This document shows, in pieces, positions 5,841 to 62,629 of a stretch of 64,000 nt of DNA (position 1 is the first letter of the stretch; each line of letters opens with the position of its first letter). A program made the position numbers and the translations under genes. Origin of the DNA: Mobula hypostoma (lineage: Eukaryota); the NCBI RefSeq assembly GCF_963921235.1, contig NC_086108.1, positions 434,001 to 498,000 on the forward strand. The letters run 5' to 3'. A model generated the notes under the pieces. The model ran no database searches. It saw only the letters and a list, made by a program, of their open reading frames with translations, and was not told where the DNA came from.

Positions 5841-8800
5841 TTTACACTAGAATGGTTGGGGTGGTGGGAATCAAATTAAAGAGATGAGGAGAGAGGGGGT
5901 TAGTTCACAACAGGGGGATAGGAACAAGTGCAGAGAGACAGAGGGGGGTAAAATGAGAGTAGAAGCAAAAAGTAGTAAGGTGAAAAGTAAAAGTGGCAGG
6001 CCGGCAAATCCAGGGCAAAAATCAAAAAGGGCCACTTTTCAACATAATCATATTAGGGCTAAGAGTGTTGTAAAAGTGAGCCTGAAGGCTTTGTGTGTCA
6101 ATGCATGGAGCATTCATAATAAGGTGGATGAATTGAAAGTGCAGATTGTTATTAATGATTATGATATAGTTGGGATCACAGAGACATGGCTCCAGGGTGA
6201 CCAAGGATGGGAGCTCAACATTCAGGGATATTCAATATTCAGGAGGGATAGACATGAAGGAAGGGGAGGTGGGGTGGCGTTGCTGGTTAAGGATGAGATT
6301 AACGCAATAGAAAGGAAGGACATAAGCCGGGAAGATGTGGAATCGATATGGGTAGAGCTGCATAACACTAAGGGGCAGAAAACGCTGGTGGGAGTTGTGT
6401 ACAGGCCACCTAACAGTAGTAGTGAGGTCAGAGATGGTATTAAACAGGAAATTAGAAATGCGTGCAATAAAGGAACAGCAGTTATAATGGGTGACTTCAA
6501 TCTACATATAGATTGGGTGAACCAAATTGGTAAGGGTGCTGAGGAAGAGGATTTCTTGGAATGTATGCGGGATGGTTTTTTGAACCAACATGTCGAGGAA
6601 CCAACTGGAGAGCAGGCTATTCTAGACTGGGTATTGAGTAATGAGGAAGGGTTAATTAGCAATCTTGTCATGAGAGGCCCTTTGGGTAAGAGTGACCATA
6701 ATATGGTGGAATTCTTCATTAAGATGGAGAGTGACATAGTTAATTCAGAAACAAAGGTTCTGAACTTAGAGAAGGGTAACTTTGAAGGTATGAGACGTGA
6801 ATTAGCTAAGATAGACTGGCAAATGACACTTAAAGGATTGACGGTGGATATGCAATGGCAAGCATTTAAAGATGGCATGGATGAGCTACAACAATTGTTT
6901 ATCTCAGTTTGGCAAAAGAAAAATCAAGGAAGGTAGTGAACCCGTGGCTGACAAGGGAAATTAGGGATAGTATCAATTCCAAAGAAGAAGCATACAAATT
7001 AGCCAGAAAAAGTGGCTCACCTGAGGACTGGGAGAAATTCAGAGTTCAGCAGAGGAGGACAAAGGGCTTAATTAGGAAGGGGAAAAAAGATTGTGAGAGA
7101 AAACTGGGAGGGAATATAAAAACTGACTGTAAAAGCTTTTATAGATATGTAAAAAGGAAAAGACTGGTAAAGACAAAAGTAGGTCCCCTACAGACAGAAA
7201 CAGGTGAATTGATTATGGGGAGCAAGGACATGGCAGACCAATCGAATAACTACTTTGGTTTGTCTTCACGAAGGAGGACATAAATAATCTTCCAGAAATA
7301 GTAGGGGACAGAGGGTCCAGTGAGATGGAGGAACTGAGGGAAATACATGTTGGTAGGGAAGTGGTATTAGGTAAATTGAAGGGATTAAAGGCAGATACAT
7401 CCCCAGGGCCAGAAGGTCTGTATCCCAGAGTGCTTAAGGAAGTAGCCCAAGAAATAGTGGATGCATTAGCGATAATTTTTCAAAACTCTTTAGATTCTGG
7501 ACTAGTTCCTGAGGATTGGAGGGTGGCTAATGTAACCCCACTTTTTAAAAAAGGAGGGAGAGAGAAACCGGGGAATTATAGACCGGTTAGCCTAACGTCG
7601 GTGGTGGGGAAACTGCTGGAGTCAGTTATCAAAGATGTGATAACAGCACATTTGGAAAGCGGTGAAATGATCGGACAAAGTCAGCATGGATTTGTGAAAG
7701 GAAAATCATGTCTGACGAATCTCATAGAATTTTTTGAGGATGTAACTAGTAGAGTGGATAGGGGAGAACCAGTGAATGTGGTATATTTAGATTTTGAAAA
7801 GGCTTTTGACAAGGTCCCACACAGGAGATTAGTGTGCAAACTTAAAGCACACGGTGTTGGGGTTAAGGTATTGATGTGGATAGAGAATTGGTTGGCAGAC
7901 AGGAAGCAAAGAATGGGAATAAACGGGACCTTTTCAGAATGGCAGGCAGTGACTAGTGGGGTACCGCAAGGCTCAGTGCTGGGACCCCAGTTGTTTACAA
8001 AAGCGGTCCCCAACCACCGGGCCACGGAGCATGTGCTACCGGGCCGCGAGGAAACGATATGATTTGGCGATATGAGTCAGCTGCACCTTTCCTCATTCCT
8101 TGTCACGCCCACTGTTGAGCCTGAACGCACGCGAGGTCATTACGCACGCGACATCCATGTCAGCGCGGGAAGGAGATCAACTCCTCGAGCTTGCAAATGA
8201 TGGTAGGCTGAAAAGTATGTTTGACATAACGAAATTGAGTGTATTAGCCTCTTATCACCTATATTTCGGTCATGATTCACACCCCTGCGTTCCCCCCCCG
8301 ATCAGAATCGCCAAAAAGGATTTGTAGAAAAAAATTGGGAGGTACACGCATGCGCACTGTTGCCCGCGCAAGGCGTCATGGTCATTGTAGTCTTTCTCGG
8401 GGTAAACACAACGTATTTGACTGCTACTCTTATCCGTTGGCAACCCTAACCAACCCCACCTCCCCGGGTCGGCCGGTCCGCAAGAAAATTGTCAATATTA
8501 AACCGGTCCGCAATGCGAGAAAGGTTGGGGACCCCAGTTGTTTACACTATAAATTAATGACAGGTGAGGAAATTAAATGCAGCATCTCCAAGTTTGCGGA
8601 TGACACGAAGCTGGGCGGCAGTGTTAACTGTGAAGAGGATGCTAAGAGGATGCAGGGTGACTTGGATAGGTTAGGTGAGTGGGCAAATTCATGGCAGATG
8701 CAATTTAATGTGGATAAATGTGAAGTTATCCACTTTGGTGGCAAAAACAAGAAAACAGATTATTATCTGAATGGTGGCCGATTAGGAAAAGGGGAGGTGC

Positions 8801-9530
8801 AACGAGACCTGGGTGTCATTATACACCAGTCGTTGAAAGTGGGCATGCAGGTACAGCAGGCGGTGTAAAAGGCGAATGGTATGCTGGCATTTATAGCAAG
8901 AGGATTCGAGTACAGGAGCCGGGAGGTACTACTGCAGTTGTACAAGGCCTTGGTGAGACCACACCTGGAGTATTGTGTGTAGTTTTGGTCCCCTAATCGG
9001 AGGAAGGACATCCTTGCCTTAGAGGGAGTACAAAGAAGGTTCACCAGATTGATTCCTGGGATGGCAGGACTTTCATATGATGAAAGACTGGATCAACTAG
9101 GCTTATACTCGTTGGAATTTAGAAGATTGAGGGGGGATCTTATTGAAACGTATAAAATCCTAAAGGGATTGGACAGGCTAGATGCAGGAAGATTGTTCCC
9201 GATGTTGGGGAAGTCCAGAACGAGGGGCCACAGTTTGAGGATAGAGGGGAAGCCTTTTAGGACCGAGATTAGGAAAAACTTCTTCACACAGAGAGTGGTG
9301 AAACTGTGGAATTCTCTGCCACAGGAAACAGTTGAGGCCAGTTCATTGGCTATATTTAAGAGGGAGTTAGATATGGCCCTTGTGGCTAAAGGGATCAGTG
9401 GGTATGGAGGGAAGGCTGGTACAGGGTTCTGAGTTGGATGATCAGCCATGATCATACTGAATGGCGGTGCAGGCTCAAAGGCCCGAATGGCCTACTCCTG
9501 CACCTATTTTCTATGTTTCTATGTTTCTAT
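5841..9530 (+). mobile_element. CR1 LINE (subfamily A), 5'-truncated at the ORF1/ORF2 junction; APE and RT with a few lesions; contains a hAT insertion
   Basis: GITETW, MGDFN, SDHN, NYRPVSLTS, SGVPQGSVLGP and KFADD motifs; (CTATGTTT)n tail at about 9510-9530. Confidence 0.95.
8001..8537 (+). mobile_element. Internally deleted hAT (Charlie/Buster-like) DNA transposon
   Basis: Terminal inverted repeats GGTCCCCAACC / GGTTGGGGACC; internal DQLLELANDGRLKSMFD resembles a Buster-type transposase segment. Confidence 0.75.
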
Positions 9531-11326: not shown

Positions 11327-14300
11327 ACATAGAAACATAGAAACATAGAAAATAGGTGCAGGAGTAGGCCATTCGGCCCTTCGAGCCTGCACCGCCATTT
11401 ATTATGATCATGGCTGATCATCCAACTCAGAACCCCGCCCCAGCCTTCCCTCCATACCCCCTGACCCCCGTAGCCACAAGGGCCATATCTAACTCCCTCT
11501 TAAATATAGCCAATGAACTGGCCTCAACTGTTTCCTGTGGCAGAGAATTCCACAGTTTCACCACTCTCTGTGTGAAGAAGTTTTTCCTAATCTCGGTCCT
11601 AAAAGGCTTCCCCTCTATCCTCAAACTGTGGCCCCTCGTTCTGGACTTCCCTAACATCGGGAACAATCTTCCTGCATCTAGCCTGTCCAATCCCTTTAGG
11701 ATCTTATACGTTTCAATCAGATCCCCCCTCAATCTTCTAAATTCCAACGAGTACAAGCCCAGTTCATCCAGTCTTTCTTCATATGAAAGTCCTGCCATCC
11801 CAGGAATCAATCTGGTGAACCTTCTTTGTACTCCCTCTATGGCAAGGATGTCTTTCCTCAGATTAGGGGACCAAAACTGCACACAATACTCCAGGTGTGG
11901 TCTCACCAAGGCCTTGTACAACTGCAGTAGTACCTCCCTGCTCCTGTACTCGAATCCTCTCGCTATAAATGCCAGCATACCATTCGCCTTTTTCACCGCC
12001 TGCTGTACCTGCATGCCCACTTTCAATGACTGGTGTATAATGACACCCAGGTCGCGTTGCACCTCCCCTTTTCCTAATCGGCCACCATTAAGATAATAAT
12101 CTGTTTTCCTGTTTTTGCCACCAAAGTGGATAACTTCACATTTATCCACATTAAATTGCATCTGCCATGAATTTGCCCACTCACCCAACCTATCCAAGTC
12201 ACTCTGCATCCTCTTAGCATCTTCCTCACAGCTAACACTGCCACCCAGCTTCGTGTCATCCGCAAACTTGGAGATGCTGCATTTAATTCCCTCATCCAAG
12301 TCATTAATATATATTGTAAACAACTGGGGTCCCAGCACTGAGCCTTGTGGTACCCCACTAGTCACCGCCTGCCATTCTGAAAAGGTCCCGTTTATTCCCA
12401 CACTTTGTTTCCTGTCTGCTAACCAATTCTCCACCCACACCAACACCTTACCCCCAATACCGTGTGCTTTAAGTTTGCACACTAATCTCCTGTGTGGGAC
12501 CTTGTCAAAAGCCTTTTCAAAATCCAAATATACCACATCCACTGGTTCTCCCCTATCCACTCTACTAGTTACATCCTCAAAAAATTCTGAGATTCGTCAG
12601 ACATGATTTTCCTTTCACAAATCCATGCTGACTTTGTCCGATCATTTCACCGCTTTCCAAATGTGCTGTTATCACATCCTTGATAACTGACTCCAGCAGT
12701 TTCCCCACCACCGACGTTAGGCTAACCAGTCTATAATTCCCCGGTTTCTCTCTCTCTCCTTTTTTAAAAAGTGGAGTTGCATTAGCCACCCTCCAATCCT
12801 CAGGAACTAGTCCAGAATCTAACGAGTTTTGAAAAATTATCACTAATGCATCCACTATTTCTTGGGCTACTTCCTTAAGCACTCTAGGATGCAGACCATC
12901 TGGCCCTGGGGATTTATCTGCCTTCAATCCCTTCAATTTACCTAATACCACTTCCCTACTAACATGTATTTCGCTCAGTTCCTCCATCTCACTGGACCCT
13001 CTGTCCCCTACTATTTCTGGAAGATTATTTATGTCCTCCTTAGTGAAGACAGAACCAAAGTAATTATTCAATTGGTCTGCCATGTCCTTGCTCCCCATAA
13101 TCAATTCACCTGTTTCTGTCTGTAGGGGACCTACTTTTGTCTTTACCAGTCTTTTCCTTTTTACATATCTATAAAAGCTTTTACAGTCCGTTTTTATGTT
13201 CCCTGCCAGTTTTCTCTCATAATCTTTTTTCCCCTTCCTAATTAAGCCCTTTGTCCTCCTCTGCTGAACTCTGAATTTCTCCCAGTCCTCAGGTGACCCA
13301 CTTTCTCTGGCTAATTTGTATGCTTCTTCTTTGGAATTGATACTATCCCTAATTTCTCTTCTCAGCCACGGGTGCACTACCTTCCTTGATTTATTCTTTT
13401 GCCAAACTGGGATGAACAATTGTTGTAGTTCATCCATGCAACCTTTAAATGCTTGCCATTGCATATCCACCGTCAATCCTTTAAGTGTCATTTGCCAGTC
13501 TATCTTAGCTAATTCACGTCTCATACCTTCAAAGTTACCCCTCTTTAAGTTCAGAACCTTTGTTTCTGAATTAACTATGTCACTCACCATCTTAATGAAG
13601 AATTCCACCATATTATGGTCACTCTTACCCAAGGGGCCTCTCAGGACAAGATTGCTAATTAACCCTTCCTCATTGCTCAAAACCCAGTCCAGAATAGCCT
13701 GCTCTCTAGTTGGTTCCTCGACATGTTGGTTTAAAAAACCATCCCGCATACATTCCAAGAAATCCTCTTCCTCAGCACCTTTACCAATTTGGTTCACCCA
13801 ATCTACATGTAGATTGAAGTCACCCATTATAACTGCTGTTCCTTTATTGCACACATTTCTAATTTCCTGTTTAATACCATCTCCGACCTCACTACTACTG
13901 TTAGGTGGCCTGTACACAACTCCCACCAGCGTCTTCTGCCCCTTAGTGTTACGCAGCTCTACCCATATCAATTCCACATCTTCCCGGCTTATGTCCTTCC
14001 TTTCTATTGCGTTAATCTCTTCTTTAACCAGCAACGCCACCCCACCTCCCCTTCCTTCATGTCTATCCCTCCTGAATATTGAATATCCCTGAACGTTGAG
14101 CTCCCATCCCTGGTCACCCTGGAGCCATGTCTCTGTGATCCCAACTATATCATAATCATTAATAACAATTTGCACTTTCAATTCATCCACCTTATTACGA
14201 ATGCTCCTTGCATTGACACACAAAGCCTTCAGGCGCTCTTTTACAACTCTCTTAGCCCTTATACAATTATGTTGAAAAGTGGCCCTTTTTAATGCTTGCC

Positions 14301-15292
14301 CTGGATTTGTCGGCCTGCCACTTTTACTTTTCTCCTTTGTACTTTTTGCTTCTACCCTCACTTTACACCCCTCTGTCTCTCTGCACTGGTTCCCATCCCC
14401 CTGTTGTGAACTAACCTCCTCACGCCTAGCCTCTTTAATTTGATTCCCACCCCCCAACCATTCTAGTTTAAAGTCATCTCAGTAGCCCCCGCTAATCTCC
14501 CTGCCAGGATATTTGTCCCCCTAGGATTCAAGTGTAACCCGTCCTTTTTGTACAGGTCACGCCTGCGCCAAAAGAGGTCCCAATGATCCAAAAACTTGAA
14601 TCCCTGCCCCCTGCTCCAATCCCTCAGCCACGCATTTATCCTCCACCTCATCGCATTCCTACTCTCACTGTCGCGTGGCACAGGCAGCAATCCCGAGATT
14701 ACAACCTTTGCGGTCCTTTTTCTCAACTCCCTTCCTCGCTCCCTATATTCTCCTTTCAGGACCTCATCCCTTTTCCTACCTATGTCATTGGTACCTATAT
14801 GTACCACGACCTCTGGCTCCTCATCCTCTCACTTCAGGATATCTTGGACACGATCAGAAATATCCCGGACCCTGGCACCAGGGAGGCAAACTCCATCCGG
14901 GTCTCTGGACTGCGTCCACAGAATTGCCTATCTGACCCCCTTACTATTGAGTCCCCTATCACAACTGCCCTCCTCTTCCTTGCCCTACCCTTCTGAGCTA
15001 CAGGGCCAGACTCTGTGCCGGAGGCACGGCCACTGTCGTTTCCCCCGGGTAAGCTGTCCCCCCCAACAGTACTCAAACAGGAGTACCTGTTGTTAAGGGG
15101 CACAGCCACCGGGGTACTCCCTATTACCTGACTTTTCCCCTTCCCCCTCCTAACCGTGACCCACTTGTCTGCCTCCCGTAGCTTCGGCGTGACCACCTGC
15201 CTGCAACTCCTCTCTATCAACTCCTCACTCTCCCTGACCAGATGAAGGTCATTGAGCTGCAGCTCCAGTTCCGTAACGTGGTCCCTTAGGAG
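11327..15292 (-). mobile_element. Near full-length CR1 LINE (subfamily A): ORF1 SGNH esterase plus ORF2 APE-RT, one frameshift in each
   Basis: ORF1 motifs VVIGDSIVRG, HIGTND, DGLH; ORF2 segments of 626 aa and 377 aa; (CATAGAAA)n tail on + at 11327. Confidence 0.96.
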
Positions 15293-27416: not shown

Positions 27417-27736
27417 ATCTCAAGAGTGAGTTTGTTGAATGCCTACGAGATGGTTTTTAGAGCAGTTTTTCATTGAGCCTACCAGGGGATCAGTTATATT
27501 GGATTGGGTGTTATGTAATGAACCAGAGGTAGGCAGCCAGTGATTGAGTTCAGTTTGAAATTTAATAAGGAGAAAGTGAAGTCTGATGTAGCAGTATTTT
27601 AGTAGAGTAAAGGAAATTACATTGGTATGAGAAAGGAGTTGGACAAAGTAAACTGGAAGGCCATGCTGGCAGGGACGGCGGCAAAGCAATAATGGTGCGA
27701 GTTTCAGGGAAAACTGAGGGAGACGCTGGACAGGTG
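27417..27736 (+). mobile_element. CR1 endonuclease/linker fragment, target of the Gypsy insertion; resumes at 31807-31826
   Basis: EFVECLRDGF; ctggacaGGTG|...|GGTGtattccaaaaacaaag restores the CR1 DRCIPK sequence. Confidence 0.75.
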
Positions 27737-30700
27737 TGTAGCCCCCCAGGCCGCCCTCAGGGTCACTCGGCTCGCTGTCGTCTAGGGAAACAGCCTCGGC
27801 CCCGCCAAACTGGGTAATTCGTTTGTGTGGATGCTGTGTGATGTACCCCACCCCGCCCAAATAACAGACAATACACCGGATACGATTAAATGATGTACAG
27901 TTTATAGATGTTACTGGAACTATACAATTAAGAGAGAATAAAATATAAAAGGAAAATAAAAGGCGCCACACTTATCAGAGTTCAATCTCTTCGTGCACAA
28001 AACCATTGGAGCTCCAGGACCACCTTCTTCACCCTGCGACCCCTCGGACCACCTCGACCGGCCGCCTGGGACCAACAACGGTGGTCGACCAGACGCTCCA
28101 ACGAGTCCGTGTCCGTCTCCTCGCCAAACGCCCTCCTCGGGGTCCGACCCTGTTTGCGGACATCACAGCACCTGGTCCATCCTCTGTCTCACTCTCCCGC
28201 TTCTGCCCCAAAACCCCGCACATACAGTATCTTCAAATACACCAAAACCATAACAACGATCCCAATTGGTTAATAGCACTCTCTTATCACACTCTAAAAT
28301 AAAACAAGCTGCTAGCGCAAACTTTCTCAGCGTTTAACACAACAAAGCGGCATTCCCCAGATTAACATAACAAAGACGCCATTTTAATTAGCTTCCGCAG
28401 TAACATAAAAGACGAAACCCCCTTACACTCTCCCCCCACCAAATAAAGTCATGTCCTCATGACTTCTAATTAACTCGCCACCCAGTCCTACAGACACACA
28501 ACACACACATACACAGATACACACAGTGACAGTGCTCCCCAAACAGTGGACCTTACTCACGTCCCACGGGCGGTAAATAGGCCAACCTATCTGGGATTGA
28601 GACCTCCGTACCCCCTCACCTAAACCCAAAAGGCTCAGACACTACTAGGGATACATCGGGCCTGTTTGCCAACTCCTCTCTCACTCAGGCCAGCACTACA
28701 GCTCGGAGCCCCCAGTCCTGTGTCCGGGGCCCCGCCTCTCCTCCTTCCCAATCCTGCCGCAACTCAGACTGCCCACAGCTAGCCCTCCCCACTACACCTG
28801 ACTCAGTGGGAGAAGGGCCAAAGGTCTCTTCCTCAATCACAGGGAAGTTAGCGAAAGGCAGCATGTTCCACATGTGCAGCACATCATCCTTCGAATCCGT
28901 ATCCTTCCTCATTCCCTCGATCGATAGCTGCTGGTTAAGTTTCTCCAAACTGAAACATTAAGCCGGGGCTACCCCTTCAGTCTCCTGCAGTCGAGACGTC
29001 AGCTTCTTCGGGGACGACTTCAACTCTCGCCACAGCCTCAGCAGTTCTGACTCAGGGTTTCTGGCCATCTCAATCTGGGACGCAGTTACCCCACCAGCTT
29101 CTTCCACCCTGACCTGAAAAGCAGCAGATAAAGAATGTTCAGCCTCCGGTTGTTTCTTCCTCAGGACGTCTTCCAGGTCAACGTTCAGTTTTTCCACATC
29201 ATTTAAACTCGCGATAGTCATCTTCAGGTTCCTTTCAAGCGTCTGCCTCCCTTTTCCAAGATCTGTCCTCCATTTGTTTACCTCCTCGGGAGTGTAGTCA
29301 AACTCCCCTCCCTGGGCTCTCGGTTTTCTGTTGACCTTAGTCAGAACACTTCCATGATCTTCCCCAACTTGCAAGTCTTCCAATCTGTTCTGAATGGACG
29401 TCTTGAGTTTCTGCTGATCCCTTCGAAGGTGGGTCATTGTTTCTTCTCGCTGGATTAATTCGTCAGTATATGACCGCAGTGCGGTGCAAATCTCCTCTCT
29501 TCCCTGTGTCTCATTCAGATTGACGACCTGGGTTTCCATCCCCCGGTCCACCACCGTCTGTCCCAACACCAGGAAGTTCAACTGGTATGTCGGGTCATTT
29601 TCCTCACATTGCACCAAACTCCTCCGGCCAAAAACTCCTCCACATTTGACACTTCGCTTCGGTCGCCCGGGCTCAGCCACTCGCCTCGCCTCATAGTCCC
29701 CCCGGGCGAATCCAAGCTCTAGGCGGTCATCCACATACGTCAAAACTCCACACACCTTCACTTCCCCCATGGTCTTCCTCATGCCCCGCAGGAAGGATGC
29801 AGGGGCTCCGGATATGCCCTTGGGCATCTTTTCGGATCGGAAGAATCCTAGGGAACTAGTAACGGCCATCTTCAGCTCAACAGCCGCACTCCTCAGGATC
29901 TGGCAACGTCCACCTCTCAGATGCAGCACATTAAACCACATCGCATCATCCACGCACACGCTGCCTTCCTCTTCCACGCCCCTAGGGTCCAGTTGCCGCG
30001 ACCTCTCTCTCACTGAGGTGTCTTCAGCGGTCAACTCCCCTCCCTCGTGGTAGTTCAGAGCATCTACTAAGAGGGTCTCACCCTCAGCTACTTTCCCCAG
30101 GACGTACCACCGCTGGGTCTCGTTTAAATTCGGTACCGGCTCAAGGCTGCTTCACACGTCCTCAGAAGCAACTCGACACACTGGGTGCCCAGAAAATGCC
30201 CCCATGAACTCCAGGGTCATTAACCAATCATCGTCTTCTGTATAACTACTGCCACGAGTACCCAAAGTCTCCGGTGCCCTTGCGGTTGTCAAGGGTAAAT
30301 GCTTCAGACACCGGTTGTAAAATGAACTGTACAACAACTTGATCTGTGCCCTGGGGTCGAGGATAGCTTTAGCATTGCTTCCCTCTATCCATAACAACAC
30401 CCTGGGGAGTGGTCCCTCTAGCCTTCAGGAATAGGGTCTTTTCCTTTCGGAAGTTCATTGGTACATTGCTGGGAACGTGCTTCCCCAGAGACCCCAAGCC
30501 GTTCCCCCACTGGGCCTCCACTAAGTTTCCCGACACCTCTCTGATCAGCTGCACAACTGATCCCCTGAAATGATCCCCCTGTCACTGCAAGCAATTTAGC
30601 CGCCCTCCTAGCCAGAGAAGACACACTGAAAACTTTCCCCCCTCTTTCAAATAACTGACAGCTGTCACTACGGTGTAAGTGAACATGACAGCTCTAACAC

Positions 30701-31806
30701 CGTCACCAGCCCGCCTACTCAAACTTTCAACCGATCCCTGTCGCTCTCCCTCAACCGAGCACTGCCACTCATCTAACAACTGAGAGATCCGCTCCGCCCA
30801 CGTCTCGCACGCCTCCGCCCCTCTTGGGGTGGACACTATCCCAAACGCCAGGTGGAGCCTGCCAGAGCTAGAACATTTATTCGCAGACTCTACCTCCAAA
30901 TCAGACCACTCTTTCCTCTCTCTCCCAACTGCATGGACAGCCCCGAGTGCCACCTCCAACTCGTCAATGCCAGCCCGAACTCGAACAAAGACCTCACCCA
31001 CAACACATACAGCAATCACCAGCAAATAACCCACAGAGACACACATTACAGATTTAAACAGGGTACCCACACAGCATACCAACAGACTCAAGCATCCCGG
31101 ACAAGCCCCCACAATGTAGCCCCCCTGGCCACCCTCAGGGTCGCTTGGCTCGCTGTCGTCTAGGGAAACAGCCTCGGCCCCGCCAAACTGGATAATTCTT
31201 TTGTGTGGATGCTGTGTGATGTACCCCACCCTGCCCAAATAACAGACAATACACCAGATGCAATTAAATGATGTACAGTTTATAGATATTACTGGAACTA
31301 TACAATTAAGAGAGAATAAAATATAAAAGGAAAATAAAAGGCACCACACTTATCAAAGTTTAATCTCTTCATGCACAAAACAGTTGGAACTCAAGGACCT
31401 TCTTCACACTGCGACCCCTCGGACCACCTCGACCGGCCGCCTGGGACCACCAATGGTGGTCGACCAGACGCTCCACACGAGTCCATCTCCGTCTCCTCGC
31501 CGAACGCCCTCCTCGGGGTGTCCGACCCTGTTCGCGGACATCACAGCACCTGGTCCATCCTCTGTCTCGCTCTCCCACCTTCTGCCCCAAAACCCCGCAC
31601 ATACAGTATCTTCAAATACACCAAAACCATAACAACGATCCCAATTGGTTAATAGCACTCTCTTATCACACTCTAAATTAAAACAAGCTGCTAGCGCAAA
31701 CTTTCTCAGCGTTTAACACAACAAAGCCGCATTCCCCAGATTAACATAACAAAGACGCCATTTTAATTAGCCTCCGCAGTAACATAAAAATCGAAACTCC
31801 CTTACA
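27737..31806 (-). mobile_element. Non-autonomous Gypsy-type LTR retrotransposon with captured myosin rod sequence
   Basis: Near-identical TG...CA LTRs at 27737-28427 and 31115-31806; 4-bp TSD GGTG; PBS at 31094-31111 TGGGGGCTTGTCCGGGAT (tRNA-Pro type); PPT at about 28428-28440; degenerate gag ([25 protein letters not shown]), protease (AILDPRAQI) and RT (GFFRSEKMPKGISGAPASF, YVDD). Confidence 0.93.
28915..29500 (-). pseudogene. Captured intronless sarcomeric myosin heavy chain rod fragments (MYH16-like)
   Basis: LEDLQVGEDHGSVLTK, LKMTIASLNDVEKLNVDLEDVLRKK, RVEEAGGVTASQIEM...ESELLRLWREL and KKLTSRLQETE...CFSLEK match successive myosin II rod motifs. Confidence 0.8.
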
Positions 31807-31828
31807 GGTGTATTCCAAAAACAAAGAC

Positions 31829-32980
31829 AGGGCCCACAACGGGCCCCACAATTTGGACGCGGCCACAATGACCCCACGGACAGTGGAAACCGCATCCCAA
31901 AGGGGAGAGGGGAACAGACCCTCCACCTCCAGGGATGGCTTCTGGGTCAGCCGTGACCGGACCCGTATCACACCCGAGCCCCAGAAAAAGACCGCTCAGG
32001 CTGCACCCCGTCCGTCGGCGACGAGTAAAATGAACTTGAGTCCGGTAATTGTGCTGCGGGACTGTCTCAGACCAACAGGTCCTGAGAACAACACGTGTAG
32101 TGGGAGTTCCGGCACCGTCCACGGGAGGGCGCTGGAGCTAGTTAACCCACTCGACGCCGATGCGGCCCCACTGCCCCAGTCACAGGAACAGAGAAGACGC
32201 TGGGTGAGCCCCTCGGAGAAGACGCAATCCAACCCAGGAGCAGGGCCCCAGCCTGCCGCTCCCACGGCCTCCCTGACCCAAGACTCTGAGGAATCAGCAC
32301 CCCACCCCACACCAGTGCGGATGGGCACACAGACAAGGGGAGCCAGTACATGAGGACCGAGCAAGTCTTCCACCCCAGGGAACCACACAGCCCGAGAGTC
32401 GGAGGACATGGGACAAACAAGAGGACAGGTAACCCCTATTTGCAACAACCAGGAGGGTCAAATAACGAGGCATCCTCACTCTAAACAGAAAAATGTAACT
32501 TGGAAACTAAGGCCCCTTAAACCTATACTAATTATAGAGAACTCTAACATTTCCAGGATTAAAAGATGCCCGAATAAGGATGTTCAATTGGACAGCTTTC
32601 CGGGAGCCAAATTCACCCATGTCACTGCTATCCTGACAAAGTTAGAACCACAACTGGAAACTAAGAAGGTTATCCCTTCCTTTGGAATAAACGATAGGTC
32701 ACATCAATCAGCAACAGTGACGAAACAGCTTCAGCAATTATTAAGAATGGCCCATATTAAATTTCCCAATGCCAGTATCTGGGTGCCAGAGCTGAACCTT
32801 AGCCACTGTTTGACAGAGGCAGAACAAGCAACCCTGGGCCAACTAAATGAGGTTATTAGAACTAAGAATTATATCCCTGCAATCTTGGTGAGGCAGTTTA
32901 AGGTAGACACAGACCACATCCATTGGACAGGAAACACAGCCCTGACCGTAGTCAAGAGGTGGATGCAGTCTTTAACCTAG
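31829..32980 (+). CDS. Penelope upstream ORF: disordered region plus SGNH hydrolase-like domain (one in-frame TGA at 32351-32353)
   Basis: ORFs 31808..32353 and 32408..32980 share one frame; SGNH blocks IIENSNI (degenerate GDS), SFPGA, SFGIND, DHIH. Confidence 0.7.
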
Positions 32981-35189
32981 AGTGGAGACAAAGCCGAGAG
33001 AGGCAGGGTCCACCACTGGGAGAGACCATCGTGAACCTCTCCCGTACATTCATCCCTACAGAAACCCAGCAAAAGGTTCTGAACAGGGGCCTCACTTTTG
33101 TCCCGACTGCAAAACTCCATAAGGAGCAGATAGAGGGGGACATGGATAAGTTCTACAAGAGAGTGGTACTCGTCGACTTCTTTGGGGAGTCAGAACGTAG
33201 AAAGACCCCTTTCACCCCTCCCTCAGACTGGATGCCCAAGAGGAGGTACAGGCCAGAAGCAGTCCTACAATTTGAGAGCACACTGAATGAGATAATGGAG
33301 AGGGAGAGAGAGGTACAGGATAAACCCAATTTAACCAGGAAGGAGAGAGCAGCCCTGAAGGAGTTGAGGGAAAATATGGATATTGTTATCAAACCAGCAG
33401 ATAAAGGGAGCAGCATAGTGATCATGGGCAAACAGCAATATCTATTTGAGGCACACAGACAATTAAACAACACGGAGCACTACACTAAACTAAAGGAACC
33501 TATATACTGGGAAACACACACAGAAATCAGGAACATTCTGCGAGAACTAGAAAGGACTAGATACCTCGGGAAGAAGCAGGTGGAGTACCTGACAGGGATA
33601 CAGCCACGAGCAAGAAAGTTCTATATCCTCCCCAAAATACACAAGAACCCAGACTCATGGACTGTTCTGGGAGAAATACCACCCGACAGGCCCATCGTGT
33701 CGGACTGCGGCAGTGAATCATACAGGATAGCAGAATACATTGATGCCTTCCTTAACCCACTATCGCAGAAACACTCCAGCTACGTCAAGGACAAGTACCA
33801 CTTTGTCTGGATAGTCAATTCCATGTCAGTGCCCCCTGAGGCCATACTCGTCACCATGGACATTGAAAGCCTGTACACCAATATAGAAACAGACAGGAGT
33901 ATAGAGGCAGTGAGGGATATCCTTCGGGAGAACCCTCAGCTTGAGAGACCAGACGAGGCCTTGATAGAACTCCTTCACCTCAGCCTAACTAAAAATGACT
34001 TTGAATTAAATAATGAATTCTATTTACAAGTCAAGGGCACAGCGATGGGAAAGAAGTTTGCTCCAGCCTATGCCAATATATACATGGCAAAATGGGAGGA
34101 AATAGTTTATCCAAAGTGTCCCAAAAAACCCATGTGTCTCTATAGATACCTGGATGACATCTGAGGAGTGTGGACGCACTCGGAGGTAGAATTAGAGGAA
34201 TTTATTCAAATCCTAAACACTCATCATCCATCCATTAAGGTTAAGGCCGCAACAGATAGGGAGAAAATTGACTTCGGTACTTCGGAAAATTCACTACGGT
34301 ATTTAAACAAGCACCAGAAAATGGCAGCCAGAAACTAGCCACCAAAGCATTCTTTAAAACCACAGACACACACACCCTCCTACACACCGGGAGCCACCAT
34401 CCCAAACACACCTTCAGAGGCATTGTCAAAGGACAGCTGACCCGGTTTCACCGCATTTGCACCAGGGCAGAGGACTTCCACCAAGCCACTACTATCCTCT
34501 TCTCTGCACTTAGACACAGGGGCTACAGCAGACGGAGACTCAGACACATCAAATCTAACTTTTTAAAAAGTATCACAAATCCCCGACCACGGGACAACAC
34601 AACACGAAAACTACCCTTGATAACAGGATACAGTGGGATGGCAGTGAATATCCACAAGAGAGTTAAAACACACTTTGAAGAGCTAAAAGCAGAAGGGGGG
34701 ACACTGGGACAATACACCATAGTCTCAGCCTTCAAAAGGGGTAGAAACTTAAAAGACATACTAGTCACTACCAAAGTACAAACAGCGCCAAACTGCAAGG
34801 TGGGAAACTGCAGGGCGTGCATATACATACAAATTTCAAAAAGCATACACAACAGAGTTACAGGGAAGTGGGCTGAGATAGAGCAGAGGATAACTTGCGA
34901 ACAAAAGAATGTAGTATATGCAATCCAGTGTAAACAATGCCATATTATATACATAGGGGAGACGGGCAACAGCCTGAGAACCAGACTCACAGGACACCTC
35001 AGTAATATCACAAGAGGAAACCAAAACAGACCAGTTAGCAGGCACTTTCTGGAGCATGGAATGTATTCCTTAGCAATCCTGGGCCTGGAAACCAACATAA
35101 ACTGGTCAAACCTCCAAAGAAAAAGAGCAGAGAGGAGATGGATTGAAAGACTACAGATATATTCCCCAAATGGCCTAAACGAGGCCTAA
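32971..35189 (+). pseudogene. Penelope RT-GIY-YIG ORF, disrupted by a TGA after YLDDI and a frameshift near 34280
   Basis: ORFs 32923..34164 and 34617..35189 plus the intervening thumb region (TDTHTLLHTGSHHPKHTFRGIVKGQLTRFHRIC). Confidence 0.9.
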
Positions 35190-49264: not shown

Positions 49265-52200
49265 CAAGCACGTGAAGGTCGGCCTGTGAACAGCGGGAGA
49301 GTTTAAAAAGCGAGCTGATTAAGAAGGGGAAGGTCATTTCTTCGGCAGTTTGAACGGGGCACAACTGTGCAAGCGCATGAAGTTCTGCTTGTGAGACAGC
49401 GGGAGAGTTTAAAAAGCGAGCAGATTAACGGAGCGGGCGACGGAGTAGTGGGAGACAGAATAGAAAGGCTTTGGCTCGAGGGGCTTCGGCGAGCAGAGGC
49501 TGAGGACGAGCTTGTTCCCAGTGAGGTAAGGCCGGGTAAGTTCCTTTAATTAATCAAATTAACATAGAAGTAGGTAATGGAGGCAGCAGTCAGAGCAGTC
49601 GAGTGCTCTGTTTCCAGTATGTGGGAAGTCAGGGTGGGCAGAATTGTCCCTGATGACTACACCTGTAAAAGGTGCATCCAGCTGCAGCTCCTGACAAACT
49701 GAGTTAGGGAACTGGAGCTGGATCTGGATGAACTTCAGATCATTCGGGAGGCAGAGGCAGAAATAGACAGGAGTTTTAGGGAGACAGTCACCCCTAAGAG
49801 TCAGGAGACAGGTAGCTGGGTGACTGTGAGGAGAGGGAAGGGGAATAGATAGAATGAGCAGAGCACCCATGTGGCCGTTCCCACAGTACATAAGTACATC
49901 GTTTTGGATACTGTTGTTGGGGACGACCTACCAGGGACAAGTTGCAGTGGTTGCGTCTCTGGCACCGAGACTGGACCCTCAGCTCAGAAGGGAAAGAGGG
50001 AAAAGTGGAGAGCAGAAGTGATAGGGGATTTGATAGTTAGGGGGACAGATAAGAGGTTCTGTGGGAGAGATCGAGAATCCCGGATGGTCTGTTGCCTCCC
50101 TGGTGCCAGAGTCTGTGATATCTCGGATCGAGTTCTCAGTATTCTCAGAAGGGAGGGTGAGCAGCCAGATGTCGTGGTCCATGTAGGGACCAATGACGTG
50201 GGTAGGAAGAGTGAGGAGGTTCCGCAAAGAGAGTTCAGGGAGTTAGGTGCAAAGTTGAAGGACAGGACCTCCAGGGTTGCAATCTCAGGATTGCTACCCG
50301 TGCCACGTGCTAGTGAGGATAGAAATAGGAAGATAATGCAGCTAAATACGTGGCTAAGGAGTTGGTGCAGGAGGGAGGGCTTCATGTTTCTGGACAATTG
50401 GGCTTTGATCCAGGGAAGGTGGGACCTGTTCCGACAGGACGGATTGCACCTGAACTGGAGGGGGATTAACATCCTTGCGGGAAGGTTTGCTAGTGCTGCT
50501 CCAGGGGGGTTTAAACTAGATTTACAGGGGGAGGGGAACCAGAGTGTTAGAGCAGATAGTGAGGTGGAGGAGGATAAAGGTCATGCGAGAACTGCAAGTA
50601 TAGTGCATGGAGTAAAGCCACGTCCAATATATAAAGAGGCTTTGAGGAAAGAGAAGCAGAATAAATGGTGTAAAGGTAGTAAGGTAGAAAGGCGAAAGTG
50701 CGTGTACTTCAATGCAAGAAGCATCAGGAACAAAGGTGATGAACTGAGAGCTTGGATACATACATGGAATTATGATGTAGTGGCCATTACAGAGACTTGG
50801 CTGGCACCAGGGCAGGAATGGATTCTCAATATTCCTGGATTTCAGTGCTTTAAAAGGGATAGAGAGGGCGGAAAAAGGGGAGGAGGGGTGGCATTACTGG
50901 TCAGGGATACTATTGCAGCTACAGAAAGGGTGGGTAATGTAGCAGGATGCTCTTTTGAGTCAGTATAGGTGGAAGTCAGGAACAGGAAGGGAGCAAATAC
51001 TCTATTGGGGGTATTCTATAGGCCCCCTGGTAGCAGCAGAGATACCAAGGAGCAGATTGGGAGGCAGATTTTGGAAAGGCGCAAAAATAACAGGGTTATT
51101 ATCATGGGTGACTTTAACTTCCATAATATTAATTGGCACCTGATTAGTTCCAATTGTTTAGATGGGGCAGAGTTTGTTAAGTGTGTCCAGGACAGATTTC
51201 TGTCACAGTATGTTGACAGGCCGACTAGGGGGAATGCCATACTAGATCTAGTACTAGGTAATGAACCAGGTCAGGTCACAGATCTCTCAGTGGGTGAGCA
51301 TCTGGGAGACAGTGACCACTGCTCCCTGGCCTTTAACATCTCTTGCAGGATGTTAGGGATAAATTTGTCCCAGTGAGGAAGATAAAGAATGGTAGGGTGA
51401 AGGAACCATGGGTGACAAGTGAGGTGGAAAATCTAGTCAGGTGGAAGAAGGCAGCATACATGAGGTTTAGGAAGCAAGGATCAGATGGGTCTATTGAGGA
51501 ATATAGGGTAGCAAGAAAGGAGCTTAAGAAGGGGCTGAGAAGAGCAAGAATGGGGCATGAGAAGGCCTTGGCGAGTAGGGTAAAGGAAAACTCCAAGGCA
51601 TTCTTCAATTATGTGAAGAACAAAAGGATGACAGGAGTGAAAGTAGGACCGATTAGAGATAAAGGTGGGAAGATGTGCCTGGAGGCTGTGAAAGTGAGCG
51701 AGGTCCTCAATGAATACTTCTCTTCGGTATTCACCAATGAGAGGGAACTTGATAATGGTGAGGACAATATGAGTGAGGCTGATGTTCTGGAGCATGCTAA
51801 TATTAAGAGAGAGGAGGTGTTGGAGTTGTTAAAATACATTAGGACGGATAAGTCCCCGGGGCCTGACGGAATATTCCCCAGGCTGCTCCACGAGGCGAAG
51901 GAAGAGATTGCTGAGCCTCTGGCTAGGATCTTTATGTCCTCGTTGTCCACGGGAATGGTACCAGAGGATTGGAAGGAAGCGAGTGTTGTCCCCTTGTTCA
52001 AAAAAGGTAGCGGGGATAGTCCGGGTAGTTATAGACCAGTGAGCCTTACACCTATGGTGGGAAAGCTGTTGGAAAAGATTCTTAGAGATAGGACCTATGG
52101 GCATTTAGAGAATCATGGTCTGATCAGGGACAGTCAGCATGGCTTTGTGAAGGGCAGATCATGTCTAACAAGCCTGATAGAGTTCTTTGAGGAGGTGACC

Positions 52201-53392
52201 AGGCATATAGATGAGGATAGTGCAGTGGATGTGATCGACATGGATTTTAGTAAGGCATTTGACAAGGTTCCACATGGTAGGCTTATTCAGAAAGTTAGAG
52301 GGCGTGGGATCCAGGGAAGTTCGGCCAGGTGGATTCAGAATTGGCTTGCCTGCAGAAGGCAGCGGGTGGTGGTGGAGGGAGTACATTCAGATGGGAGGGT
52401 TGTGACTAGTGGTGTCCCACAAGGATTGGTTCTGGGATCTCTACTTTTCGTGATTTTAATTAATGATCTGGATGTGGGGGTAGAAGGGTCGGCTGGCAAG
52501 ATTGCAGACGACCCAAAGGTTGGTGGTGTTGTAGATAGTGTAGAGGATTGTCAAAGATTGCAGAGAGACATTGATAGGATGCAGAAGTGGGCTGAGAAGT
52601 GGCAGATGGAGTTCAACCCGGAGAAGTGTGAGGTGGTACACTTTGGAAGGACAAACTCCAAGGCAGAGTACAAAGTAAATGGCAGGATACCTGGTAGTGT
52701 GGAGGAGCAGAGGGATCTGGGGGTACATGTCCACAGATCCCTGAAAGTTGCCTCACAGGTAGATAGGGTAGTTAAGAAAGCTTGTGGGGTGTTAGCTTTC
52801 ATAAGTCGAGGGATAGAGTTTAAGAGTTGCGATGTAATGATGCAGCTCTATAAAACTGTGGTTAGGCCACACGGAGTACTGTGTCCAGTTCTGGTCACCT
52901 CACTATAGGAAGGATGTGGAAGCATTGGAAAGGGTACAGAGGAGATTTACCAGGATGCTGCCTGGTTTAGAAAGCATGCATTATGATCAGAGATTAAGGG
53001 AGCTAGGGCTTTACTCTTTGCAGAGAAGGAGAATGAGAGGAGACATGATAGAGGTATACAAGATATTAAGTGGAATAGATAGAGTGGATAGCCAGCACCT
53101 CTTCCCCAGGGCACCACTGCTCAATACAAGAGGACATGTCTTTAAGGTAAGGGGTGGGAAGTTCAAGGGGGATATTAGAGGAAGGTTTTTTACTCAGAGA
53201 GTGGTTGGTGCGTGGAATGCACTGCCTGAGTCAGTGGTGGAGGCAGATACACTCGTGAAGTTTAAGAGACTACTAGACAGGTATATGGAGGAATTTAAGG
53301 TGGGGGGGTTATATGGGAGGCAGGGTTTAAGAGTCGGCACAACATTGTGGGCTGAAGGGCCTGTACTGTGCTATACTGTTATATGTTCAATG
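49265..53392 (+). mobile_element. Near full-length CR1 LINE (subfamily B) with 5' UTR and an internal deletion at about 51341
   Basis: ORF1 from ATG at about 49577 (ECSV..MWE..CKRC, GDLIVRG, HVGTND, DGLH); EN; 521-aa RT segment; 3' tail. Confidence 0.95.
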
Positions 53393-53872: not shown

Positions 53873-56800
53873 CATAGAAACATAGAAACATAGAAAATAG
53901 GTGCAGGAGTAGGCCATTCGGCCCTTCAAGCCTGCACCGTCATTTATTATGATCATGGCTGATCATCCAACTCAGAACCCCACCCAGCCTTCCCTCCATA
54001 CCCCCTGATCCCCGTAGCCACAAGGGCCATATCTAACTCCCTCTTAAATATAGCCAATGAACTGGCCTCAACTGTTTCCTGTGGCAGAGAATTCCACAGA
54101 TTCACCACTCTCTGTGTGAAGAAGTTTTTCCTAATCAAGGTCCTAAAAGGCTTCCCCTTTATCCTCAAACTGTGACCCCTTGTTCTGGACTTCCCCAACA
54201 TCGGGAACAATCTTCCTGCATCTAGCCTGTCCAATCCCTTTAGGATTTTATACGTTTCAATCAGATCCCCCCTCAATCTTCTAAATTCCAACGAGTACAA
54301 GCCCAGTTCATCCAGTCTTTCTTCATATGAAAGTCCTGCCATCCCAGGAATCAATCTGGTGAACCTTCTTTGTACTCCCTCTATGGCAAGGATGTCTTTC
54401 CTCAGATTAGGGGACCAAACCTGCACACAATACTCCAGGTGTGGTCTCACCAAGGCCTTGTACAACTGCAGTAGTACCTCCCTGCTCCTGTACTCGAATC
54501 CTCTCGCTATAAATGCCAGCATACCATTCGCCTTTTTCACCGCCTGCTGTACCTGCATGCCCACTTTCAATGACTGGTGTATAATGACACCCAGGTCTCG
54601 TTGCACCTCCCCTTTTCCTAATCGGCCACCATTCAGATAATAATCTGTTTTCCTATTTTTGCCACCAAAGTGGATAACTTCACATTTATCCACGTTAAGT
54701 TGCATCTGCCATGAATTTGCCCACTCACCCAACCTATCCAAGTCACTCTGCATCCTCTTAGCATCCTCCTCACAGCTAACACTGCCACCCAGCTTCGTGT
54801 CATCCGCAAACTTGGAGATGCTGCATTTAATTCCCTCATCCAAGTCATTAATATATATTGTAAACAACTGGGGTCCCAGCACTGAGCCTTGCGGTACCCC
54901 ACTAGTCACCGCCTGCCATTCTGAAAAGGTCCCATTTATTCCCACTCTTTATTTCCTGTCTGCTAACCAATTCTCCATCCACATCAATACCTTACCCCCA
55001 ATACCGTGTGCTTTAAGTTTGCACACTGATCTCCTGTGTGGGACCTTGTCAAAAGCCTTTTGAAAATCCAAATATACCACATCCACTGGTTCTCCCCTAT
55101 CCACTCTACTAGTTACATCCTCAAAAAATTCTATGAGATTCGTCAGACGTGATTTTCCTTTCACAAATCCATGCTGACTTTGTCCGATCATTTCACCGCT
55201 TTCCAAATGTGCTGTTATCACATCTTTGATAACTGACTCCAGCAGTTTCCCCACCACCGACGTTAGGCTAACCGGTCTATAATTCCCCAGTTTCTCTCTC
55301 CCTCCTTTATTAAAAAATGGGGTTACATTAGCCACCCTCCAATCCTCAGGAACTAGTCCAGAATCTAACGAGTTTTGAAAAATTATCACTAATGCATCCA
55401 CTATTTCTTGGGCTACTTCCTTAAGCACTCTAGGATGCAGACCATCTGGCCCTGGGGATTTATCTGCCTTCAATCCCTTCAATTTACCTAACACCACTTC
55501 CCTACTAACAAGTATTTCGCTCAGTTCCTCCATCTCACTGGACCCTCTGTCCCCTACTATTTCTGGAAGATTATTTATGTCCTCCTTAGTGAAGACAACC
55601 AAAGTAATTATTCAATTGGTCTGCCATGTCCTTGCTCCCCATAATCAATTCACCTGTTTCTGTCTGCAGGGGACCTACATTTGTCTTTACCAGTCTTTTC
55701 CTTTTCACATATCTATAAAAGCTTTTACAGTCAGTTTTTATGTTCCCTGCCAGTTTTCTCTCATAATCTTTTTTCCCCTTCCTAATTAAGCCCTTTGTCC
55801 TCCTCTGCTGAACTCTGAATTTCTCCCAGTCCTCAGGTGAGCCACTTTCTCTGGCTAATTTGTATGCTTCTTCTTTGGAATTGATACTATCCCTAATTTC
55901 TCTGCTCAGCCACGGGTGCACTACCTTCCTTGATTTATTCTTTTGCCAAACTGGGATGAACAATTGTTGTAGTTCATCCATGCAGCCTTTAAATGCTTGC
56001 CATTGCATATCCACTATCAATCCTTTAAGTGTCATTTGCCAGTCTATCTTAGCTAATTCACGTCTCATACCTTCAAAGTTACCCCTCTTTAAGTTCAGAA
56101 CCTTTGTTTCTGAATTAACTATGTCACTCTCCATCTTAATGAAGAATTCCACCATATTATGGTCACTCTTACCCAAGGGGCCTCTCACGACAAGATTGCT
56201 AATTAACCCTTCCTCATTGCTCAAAACCCAGTCCAGAATAGCCTGCTCTCTAGTTGGTTCCTCGACATGTTGGTTCAAAAAACCATCCCAAATACATTCC
56301 AAGAAATCCTCTTCCTCGGCACCTTTACCAATTTGGTTCACCCAATCTACATGTAGATTGAAGTCACCCATTATAACTGCTATTCCTTTATTGTACACAT
56401 TTCTAATTTCCTGTTTAATACCATCTCCGACCTCACTACTACTGTTAGGTGGCCTGTACACAACTCCCACCAGCGTCTTCTGCCCCTTAGTGTTACGCAG
56501 CTCTACCCATATCGATTCCACATCTTCCCGGCTTATTTCCTTCCTTTCTATTGCGTTAATCTCTTCTTTAACCAGCAACGCCACCCCACCTCCCCTTCCT
56601 TCATGTCTATCCCTCCTGAATATTGAATATCCCTGAACATTGAGCTCCCATCCCTGGTCACCCTGGAGCCATGTCTCTGTGATCCCAACTATATCATAAT
56701 CATTAATAACAATCTGCACTTTCAATTCATCCACCTTATTACGAATGCTCCTTGCATTGACACACAAAGCCTTCAGGCGCTCTTTTACAACTCTCTTAGC

Positions 56801-61825: not shown

Positions 61826-62629
61826 TAAAGAGAACTTCTGGCCCATTGGCCTTTATGAATCAGAGTATTGAGTACAGGGGTTGGGATGTAATGCTTGAAG
61901 TTGTATAATATGTCGATGAGACCAAATTTGGAGCGTTGTGTACAGTTCTGGTCATCTATTATGTCTAGTTTAATTATCATTCAACCATTCATGAATATAG
62001 TCAAACAAAACAGTGTTCCCTGGAGCCAAGGTGTAAAACATACACAGCACAAGGCACACACAGCACATACAGGATAGGAAGCAAACATACAGTCTTACAA
62101 AACAGAAGTGTGTATATATAGCCCAAGCCCCTGAGTGCCATGTTTTCAAATTGTCGGGTCATGGGTGCAATTGGCAAGAAAACACGATTTTCAGTAATCC
62201 ACAGACAAATATATGCCCACAATCCAGCAAGAGAGTCCAGCCCCCAACCAAACATGGATGCTGTGCTACACTGCCTCGGGATCTCCTCTCCTAAATTGTA
62301 GCAACAGCTAAGTCCACGGCTTGAGGCCTAGTCCTTGCTACTGCCAGAGTACACAACTCGCCCATCCGCTGCCACACCAACAAACAAGGGAAATGGAATT
62401 ACGGCATCTTAGGTTATCAATGCCCAACAGGGTCTTGCGATTGCAAGAGAAAATGTCCAAGCAATCTCCCAACAACACAGTAGCAGGCAGCAACACAAAC
62501 GGCTTGCTGACCTGCAGTACCCAAAGTTCTTAAAGTCCATTATTGACTTGGGATCATAAAAAAATACAAAAACACCTTTGGTTGTCCCTGGAGAGGCCAC
62601 TGTGTCCAAACACACTGCCATCATACTGG

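Follow-up and report, generated by a model that had tools for sequence, protein, structure and literature searches.

The stretch analysed here (the window) is a segment of 64,000 nucleotides from the ray Mobula hypostoma (NCBI RefSeq assembly GCF_963921235.1, contig NC_086108.1, positions 434,001 to 498,000 of the forward strand). Its minus strand carries at positions 27737-31806 a complete but decayed long terminal repeat (LTR) element with TG..CA ends, in which a fragment of a sarcomeric myosin rod stands behind a truncated Gypsy-type reverse transcriptase (RT). This element is very probably a dead copy of an abundant non-autonomous Ty3/Gypsy-type family of batoid rays whose captured MYH16-type rod cDNA later became a drifting passenger.

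Anatomy of the LTR element

In element sense, from 5′ to 3′, the element and its borders comprise the following features (window coordinates, followed by the strand and, where noted, the basis of the assignment):

31807-31810, no strand: target-site duplication (TSD) CACC, 5′ side (direct reading of the sequence)
31115-31806, minus: 5′ LTR, 692 bp, TGTAAG...GCTACA (repeat pair and alignment)
31094-31111, minus: primer-binding site (PBS) TGGGGGCTTGTCCGGGAT, 18 nt, 3 nt inside the 5′ LTR (sequence reading)
30558-31046, minus: gag remnant (frame A), ATG at 31046-31044, weak PNMA-like capsid match (tblastn and Pfam)
30421-30651, minus: linker piece, readable in a second frame only (the tblastn pieces fall in three frames)
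30155-30424, minus: protease-like piece (frame C), AILDPRAQ at 30344-30367, closed by TGA 30152-30154
29597-29959, minus: RT remnant, fingers and palm only, MPKGISGAPASF at 29792-29827 and YVDD at 29726-29737 (Pfam, PDB, sequence)
28916-29572, minus: myosin-rod-derived insert, with a TAA inside at 28958-28960 (alignment to the myosin-16-like protein P0009 and to PDB sequences)
28688-28915, minus: conserved tail (GMRK...), followed by the stop of the frame, TGA 28685-28687 (old and young subfamilies)
28428-28440, minus: polypurine tract (PPT) GGTGGGGGGAGAG, 13 nt, abutting the 3′ LTR (sequence reading)
27737-28427, minus: 3′ LTR, 691 bp (repeat pair and alignment)
27733-27736, no strand: TSD CACC, 3′ side (direct reading)

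An earlier reading made from the letters of the window (the sequence-only reading) had described the TSD, PBS and PPT as intact, and this holds for the CACC pair, the 18-nt PBS and the 13-nt PPT. The same reading took the two LTRs to be near-identical, which they are not: 654 of 688 aligned bases agree (95.06%), with 4 indel events and a Kimura two-parameter (K2P) distance of 0.051. This distance corresponds to an insertion age of about 13-51 My if neutral substitution is assumed to proceed at 0.5-2 x 10^-9 per site per year, a range that is not calibrated for rays. TGGGGGCTTGTCCGGGAT is putatively a tRNA-Pro-primed site; no tRNA gene was found in the window. A short TG-rich simple repeat lies at 28490-28530, between the stop of the frame and the PPT.

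The gag remnant is 91% identical (tblastn) to residues 1-163 of the long frame of another copy, L049, and the PNMA match of Pfam has an E-value of 6.4e-4 in the window copy, 2.2e-5 in L049 and 1.2e-14 in the old copy L061. The piece in frame C is presumably a protease, a name that we gave it from the motif AILDPRAQ. Both RT motifs singled out by the sequence-only reading (MPKGISGAPASF and YVDD) are present, but taken alone the RT of the window copy is weak (Pfam RVT_1, E 0.074, below the cut-off; Ty3 RT in the PDB, E 0.41), and the match is firm at the family level only, where the frame of copy L051 aligns to the RT of pol proteins with E-values down to 5e-25 and 34-42% identity. Three of the matched pol proteins were scanned; they are Gypsy-type, with the order RT-RNaseH-integrase, and one of them has a PNMA gag. 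As had been claimed, RNase H and integrase are missing: Pfam detected neither domain in the window frames or in eight long frames of other copies. The order PR-RT-RNaseH-integrase of an autonomous pol is thus not seen, and because the two domains were not found we file the element as Gypsy-derived and non-autonomous rather than as an autonomous Gypsy.

Compared with the longer frames of other copies, the interior of the window copy is the wreck of one frame that ran from ATG 31046 to TGA 28687-28685 through a gag remnant, a protease-like stretch, the N-terminal part of RT, the myosin-like part and the tail. It is broken by TGA 30154-30152, by TAA 28960-28958 and by at least two frameshifts near 30430-30650; other copies encode Cys and Lys at the places of the TGA and the TAA. 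The minus-strand open reading frame (ORF) of 358 codons on which the sequence-only reading was built is real. It is counted from a TTG at 30034, within a frame (28958..30151) that is open for 397 codons from stop to stop, and the first ATG, at 29941, leaves 327 codons. The ancestral frame had roughly 800-840 codons, and the 397-codon frame is the longest stretch of it left open.

A fragment of the myosin rod, closest to MYH16

The ORF runs, as proposed, into three non-adjacent parts of the myosin rod that follow each other in the order of the protein. Residues 224-339 align to residues 977-1092 of Myosin-4 without a gap over 116 residues (E 2.8e-6, PDB sequences) and the second piece (EEAGG..QIEM) aligns to Myosin-4 1107-1184, while the third (KKLTSRLQE.E), with its continuation past the stop, aligns to residues 1378-1415 of a myosin-16-like protein across TAA 28960-28958. 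In the numbering of P0009 the insert covers about 901-925, 966-1081, 1139-1172 and 1385-1415. Among the 13 PDB sequences listed at E<=10, 11 are myosin II heavy chains and the other 2 are Ty3 RT. No Pfam match to the myosin head or to Myosin_tail was found in the window frames (Myosin_tail: none at E<=1). With about 220 rod-derived residues, a hydrophobic occupancy of 0.53 at the heptad positions a and d and 7.3 prolines and glycines per 100 residues, the window copy is not a functional myosin gene. E-values from BLAST searches of small local databases (copies against P0009) were not taken as a measure of significance.

The affinity to MYH16 suggested by the sequence-only reading is borne out by the ranking of the matches. 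For the ray protein P0007, the best long matches among 5.8 billion proteins are teleost myosin-16-like proteins (E 4e-12), ahead of fast-skeletal myosins (E 5e-6), and the long family frame L051 retrieved a myosin of 1943 aa among 1.84 billion representatives (E 2.9e-9). The 120 listed matches of the rod-like part of P0065, a protein of Narcine bancroftii, are mostly MYH16, myosin-16(-like) or masticatory myosins, including those of Callorhinchus and Chiloscyllium, and some copies bear the NCBI label 'putative uncharacterized protein MYH16'. The old copy L061 is 47-51% identical to eight MYH16-type proteins (49-51% to seven of them) and 45-48% to other myosins; the window copy is 44% identical to shark MYH16, compared with 33-36% for other myosins.

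Two trees were built on P0009 columns 879-1180 and rooted on two distant myosins. The first has 26 rows, after removal of rows with fewer than 120 covered positions and of P0006 and P0081 (patchy placement); the second has 33 rows, P0011 being left out as a duplicate. Both trees unite every element-borne sequence in one clade with 100% support. This clade is sister to the MYH16 clade, and a split with 98% support separates them from the fast-skeletal cluster of the host and from other fast/cardiac-type myosins. Judged by match ranking and trees, the insert is closer to MYH16 than to other sarcomeric myosins, and the placement is compatible with, though not proof of, a capture from an ancestral ray MYH16. 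The likely MYH16 locus of the host lies on contig C36, at about 112.72 Mb, where a candidate exon (C36:112722928-112723185) has 69% identity to P0009. A tandem array of at least eight sarcomeric MYH genes with short rod introns is located at C68:15.31-15.89 Mb (L034, L035, L039-L044).

Introns and insert junctions

The sarcomeric MYH genes of the C68 array have exon junctions at about P0009 positions 884/885, 966, 1025, 1073 and 1103 (taken from the ends of high-scoring segment pairs, to within about 3 aa). The old copies of the element run uninterrupted through all five positions and the window copy through two, in line with the earlier remark that no introns are evident. According to the review PMC6402096, MYH16 contains extra introns, and shark jaw muscle expresses the gene. 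In the junction DNA of L061, L047 and the window copy, there is no A-tract and no inner duplication at the 3′ junction of the insert. The upstream junction lies inside the RT frame; it is in frame in two of the four old copies checked, the other two showing decay frameshifts.

An abundant family with old and young subfamilies

Searches of the host genome, which measures 3.48 Gb, gave first-look candidate counts that are lower bounds and not copy numbers: 831 candidates for the 563-nt insert, 2,825 for a 2-kb interior and 4,724 for the LTR. All 40 insert matches that were scored carry the insert, with 95-100% identity over at least 560 of its 563 nt. The same architecture, a host-derived coding sequence between PBS and PPT, recurs in copies L047-L061. 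Nine of these (L049-L057) form a longer subfamily with open frames of 328-716 aa that jointly extend from the gag ATG into the tail; L049 (716 aa) and L051 (677 aa) each have one frame from gag to tail. The window subfamily lacks 40 rod codons kept by the long-type copies.

The LTR pairs could be measured in seven of the nine long-type copies and give K2P values of 0.053-0.072, so similar to the 0.051 of the window copy that the long-type burst is about as old. The description of the family as multi-copy and non-autonomous stands, but its supposed recent mobility does not: the LTR pairs of the window copy and of these seven copies provide no evidence of very recent movement. Long-type and window-type copies are 91-94% identical in the interior and 80-88% identical in the LTRs over full-length matches; either the LTRs changed at a higher rate or they were swapped.

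Six diverged copies (L047, L048 and L058-L061) match both the family frame and P0009, with rods that are longer and 46-58% identical to MYH16. Matches to the gag/pol region lie upstream of the rod in five of them, L060 matching in the rod and tail only. L058 and L059 are contiguous over P0009 880-1130, and the matches of old copies to MYH16 extend over up to 254 residues. L047 covers 976-1107, lacks 1108-1142 and resumes to 1176. L061 reaches about 1176 and from there skips to about 1385, the join lying between two ELEE-type motifs; in L058, L059 and L060 the join is from about 1107 to about 1393. Further rod deletions are present in L047 and in the young family and differ between the two. From this deletion series we therefore consider the three non-adjacent myosin pieces to result from successive deletions in one longer fragment, and not from three captures.

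A small LTR element that has an RT-RNase H frame of its own is nested in the old copy L059, at L059:5943-8975. This frame (7525-8526) was considered as the missing half of pol and rejected, as it sits inside the nested LTR pair 5943-6206 / 8712-8975. The genome matches to Pfam Myosin_tail, which are non-muscle-type myosin genes and intronless tail fragments, were likewise set aside, having no nucleotide similarity to the element. The intronless tail matches with internal stops (C18:48745523-48746731, L021; C50:30689110-30689772; C184:304888-305403; C157:172388-172903) reach up to 432 bits against Myosin_tail_1 (model positions 514-920) and are only about 30% identical to a myosin-16-like protein. 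They may be separate retrocopies of non-muscle-type myosins.

Distribution across rays

Proteins with the same RT remnant, the same deleted rod or both occur in Mobula birostris, M. hypostoma, Hemitrygon akajei and Hypanus sabinus, the nearest matches to the window being those of Mobula birostris (93-94% identity). To judge from P0065, Narcine bancroftii probably carries the family as well: by eye this protein is about 87% like the old Mobula copies, versus 58-63% for genuine MYH16 proteins, and no full-length Narcine parent was found for it among longer proteins. If P0065 is a vertical member of the family, the capture is older than the split between electric rays and stingrays, placed at about 200 Mya (Stein et al. 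2018, in the figure quoted by bioRxiv 10.1101/2025.02.26.637739).

Among the names given to gene models derived from the family are 'myosin heavy chain, skeletal muscle-like', 'cardiac muscle isoform-like' and 'myosin-6-like'. The Hypanus sabinus protein P0034 ('succinate dehydrogenase assembly factor 3 isoform X1', SDHAF3) ends in about 120 residues of element myosin and tail, which suggests that element sequence was exonised or that the model was joined wrongly. All 30 bins of the element are covered by contigs from four runs; these runs are no more than guessed to be RNA, and such coverage cannot demonstrate transcription. The only relatives of the tail that were found are ray copies of the element family.

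Codon tests and decay of the coiled coil

Codon tests were made on 29 young copies, of which 20 were picked by similarity to the window and 9 by long frames, both of which bias the sample, and on the 6 old copies. By the Nei-Gojobori method (NG86), the true frame has an overall omega of 0.60-0.67, and the five shifted or antisense frames range over 0.64-0.89. For the myosin part the values are 0.47-0.60 in the true frame versus 0.46-1.12 in the controls, with 0.46-0.60 in the antisense frame that shares third positions; for the RT remnant they are 0.64-1.15. Comparisons with the six old copies give 0.54-0.81 for myosin, 0.49-0.90 for all three parts and 0.56-1.02 for shifted frames. We also compared two-state variants shared by at least two copies with singletons, leaving out the consensus. 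Counts of non-synonymous to synonymous variants are as follows:

All parts: shared 42:26, singletons 121:46, p 0.12
Gag/linker: shared 7:6, singletons 50:7, p 0.011
Myosin: shared 16:18, singletons 41:20, p 0.08
RT remnant: shared 17:2, singletons 21:13, p 0.055, with the opposite trend

None of the 68 shared variants creates a stop. The hydrophobic occupancy of the heptad a and d positions falls from 0.62-0.72 in real myosins to 0.53-0.59 in the old copies and 0.51-0.53 in the young ones, and the number of prolines plus glycines per 100 residues rises from about 1-4.5 in real myosins to 7-9 in the young copies. Because omega is near that of the controls and the heptad signature is fading, we see no clear constraint on the myosin residues. 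The suggestion that the long frame of the window copy might be under selection is not upheld; it is a remnant of the ancestral frame, broken here by two stops and by frameshifts.

Origin of the chimera

In the origin that we propose, the part of pol beyond the RT palm (thumb, RNase H and integrase) would have been replaced, in the ancestor of the family, by cDNA of an MYH16-type sarcomeric myosin rod, from about residue 880 to about residue 1420, giving a single frame of gag, protease, partial RT, myosin and tail. The capture would have taken place at the RNA level, either by copy-choice of RT onto a co-packaged spliced myosin mRNA or by way of a comparable RNA formed by read-through or recombination; for plant elements, the review PMC13317346 discusses template switches between RNAs packaged together. 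Since then, an autonomous Gypsy relative may have supplied the enzymes that copied the family in trans by way of the family's own LTRs, PBS and PPT. The proposed helper would have a PNMA-type gag, the architecture seen among the relatives of the RT remnant. Later in-frame deletions at ELEE-type repeats in the rod would have left three separate myosin pieces, whose residues have presumably been a drifting passenger ever since.

The core of the sequence-only reading, in which a Gypsy-type element long ago took up the spliced mRNA of a muscle myosin and fused it in frame behind a truncated RT, is thus retained. Resemblance of a generic coiled coil, or a later retrocopy private to the window copy, can be given practically no credence. 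Coiled coils do draw spurious matches, and the window frame has no Myosin_tail match even at E<=1, but 116 residues align to myosin collinearly, in register and without a gap, the old copies are 46-58% identical to MYH16, and searches of whole databases return myosins, so that the similarity is specific. A private retrocopy is ruled out by an insert common to thousands of candidate copies (all 40 scored matches included) and by a junction without poly(A). More serious is a capture at the DNA level, in which a processed pseudogene made by a long interspersed nuclear element (LINE), or recombination or deletion inside a Gypsy master copy, produced a composite that was then amplified. Intronless host cDNA flanked by element sequence is just what this would leave behind, other intronless myosin-tail fragments are present in the genome, and the window is full of LINEs. 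Yet the captured piece is internal coding sequence without the 3′ end of an mRNA, neither old nor young copies have poly(A) or an inner duplication at the junction, and the upstream junction lies within the RT frame, in frame in the two old copies mentioned above. We regard a DNA-level route as improbable. Several points nevertheless weigh against the RNA-level capture of an MYH16 rod that then drifted. No autonomous helper was identified in the host genome, and the RNA-level mechanism is inferred solely from what is missing, namely introns, poly(A) and an inner TSD. The absence of introns was judged against paralogues, because the MYH16-type source gene itself was not read. In the trees, the element clade is basal to the chondrichthyan MYH16 group and not nested in it; long-branch attraction could cause this, as could an origin of the insert from another ancient paralogue.

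The remaining points against this origin concern the idea of a pure passenger, and they are also what favours a functional chimeric frame of gag, protease, RT, myosin and tail, in which selection on replicating lineages would maintain the translatability of the whole frame. The myosin piece would then serve as a spacer or an oligomerising helix, or translation would protect or package the RNA in cis. The frame of the progenitor of the young family was uninterrupted: the stops in the 29 copies occupy 31 codon columns, with 0-4 per copy, and any one stop occurs in at most 6 of the 29. Against a reference copy, 28 copies were compared, and any one frameshifting indel is found in at most 4 of them; the single difference that all of them show comes from the loss of 1 nt in the reference. 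A stop would result from about 3.7% of substitutions. For 677 codons to stay free of stops along a neutral path of 0.06-0.16 substitutions per site, the probability is 0.011 to 5e-6; the subfamilies differ by about 0.2-0.3 substitutions per site. The rod deletions fixed in the young lineage are all in frame, shared variants lean towards synonymous in gag/linker (p 0.011) and in myosin (p 0.08) and include no stop, and open-frame gene models exist in four other ray species. Against such a function, omega in the true frame is barely below that of the shifted frames, the heptad pattern is eroding while prolines and glycines accumulate, and large parts of the rod have been deleted repeatedly and differently in each subfamily. 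Template switches between codon-phased repeats are expected to yield in-frame deletions anyway, the path lengths rest on single decayed copies and on assumed star phylogenies, and the nine long-type copies were selected for their long frames. Because the path lengths are rough and in-frame deletions are expected from repeat switches, we hold selection on the frame to be rather unlikely. Its boldest version, in which helper-dependent lineages were selected for perhaps about 200 million years for an uninterrupted frame of about 800-840 codons through a drifting myosin spacer, the capture pre-dating the split of electric rays from stingrays and mantas, appears doubtful.

Surroundings of the element

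The window consists largely of repeats. Next to the 5′ side of the element, at 32902-35189 on the plus strand, a frame matching RT is accompanied by a GIY-YIG nuclease frame, a pairing that we take to be typical of Penelope-like elements. Four LINE-type stretches with apurinic endonuclease and RT domains are located at 5851-8062 (plus), 11427-14478 (minus), 49853-52908 (plus) and 53953-57690 (minus), two of them preceded by a frame resembling a GDSL lipase/esterase. Long frames with short matches to ALKBH8_N (Pfam E 6e-7 and 8e-6) lie on the minus strand at 948-1895 and 61264-61980 and probably represent another repeat family.

Comparison with known gene captures

Acutely transforming retroviruses carry Gag-onc fusions and are defective, helper-dependent genomes in which spliced host cDNA stands in place of viral genes. 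The ray element resembles them in the in-frame fusion of host cDNA, the defective genome and the dependence on a helper. They are exogenous and short-lived and their captured activity is selected, whereas the ray element is endogenous, persists vertically and carries a structural fragment without evident activity. Non-autonomous LTR elements with partial coding capacity are mobilised in trans and combine intact LTRs, PBS and PPT with a defective or absent pol. Unlike the ray element, they are not known to hold captured host coding sequence. One element of this kind, BARE-2, is named in PMC13317346.

The same review mentions Bs1 of maize as an LTR retrotransposon with transduced fragments of host genes (PMC13317346, citing Jin & Bennetzen 1994; Elrouby & Bureau 2001, 2010). 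As described there, Bs1 is, like the ray element, a defective LTR retrotransposon with host coding fragments inside it and a hybrid ORF, but it belongs to a plant and combines pieces of three genes. The ray element is a vertebrate relative of Ty3/Gypsy with one gene fragment behind a truncated RT, thousands of candidate copies and deep subfamilies. In crocodilians, endogenous retroviruses (ERVs) have captured host mRNA, CrocERV29 that of KIT-ligand and CrocERV31 that of nectin3 (PMC4299795). What this source reports of them includes several features shared with the ray element, namely a vertebrate germline, intronless host coding sequence and a multi-copy capture that predates speciation. They differ, according to the same account, in being retroviruses with whole ORFs (9 and 6 copies), placed as a separate gene or as a replacement of env, for which purifying selection is reported; the ray element has a partial rod fragment in place of RNase H and integrase, in frame with pol, in far more copies and with no clear constraint.

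Significance

The process is a known one, the transduction of host mRNA by a retroelement; the ray family differs from the precedents in the type of element, the host lineage and the copy number, and in that the host sequence in frame with its pol remnant is part of a structural protein and not a whole gene. No description of the ray family stood among the titles listed by literature searches on gene capture by LTR elements, which did not extend to the repeat libraries Repbase and Dfam. Most accounts of such capture in the literature searched concern plants, exogenous oncogenic retroviruses or a few crocodilian ERV copies. Here, a vertebrate Ty3/Gypsy-type element would have captured a spliced host mRNA and amplified it to thousands of candidate copies. 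For annotation the family is a hazard: pieces of it are modelled in at least five species, and ray genomes hold many false 'myosin-like' genes.

The many dated copies form a natural experiment that records the decay of a coiled coil in the absence of constraint. They also raise the testable question of why a helper-dependent element keeps its frame open. If the frame has indeed been selected, translation through the captured sequence would be needed in cis, and might shield the RNA from nonsense-mediated decay or couple translation to packaging.

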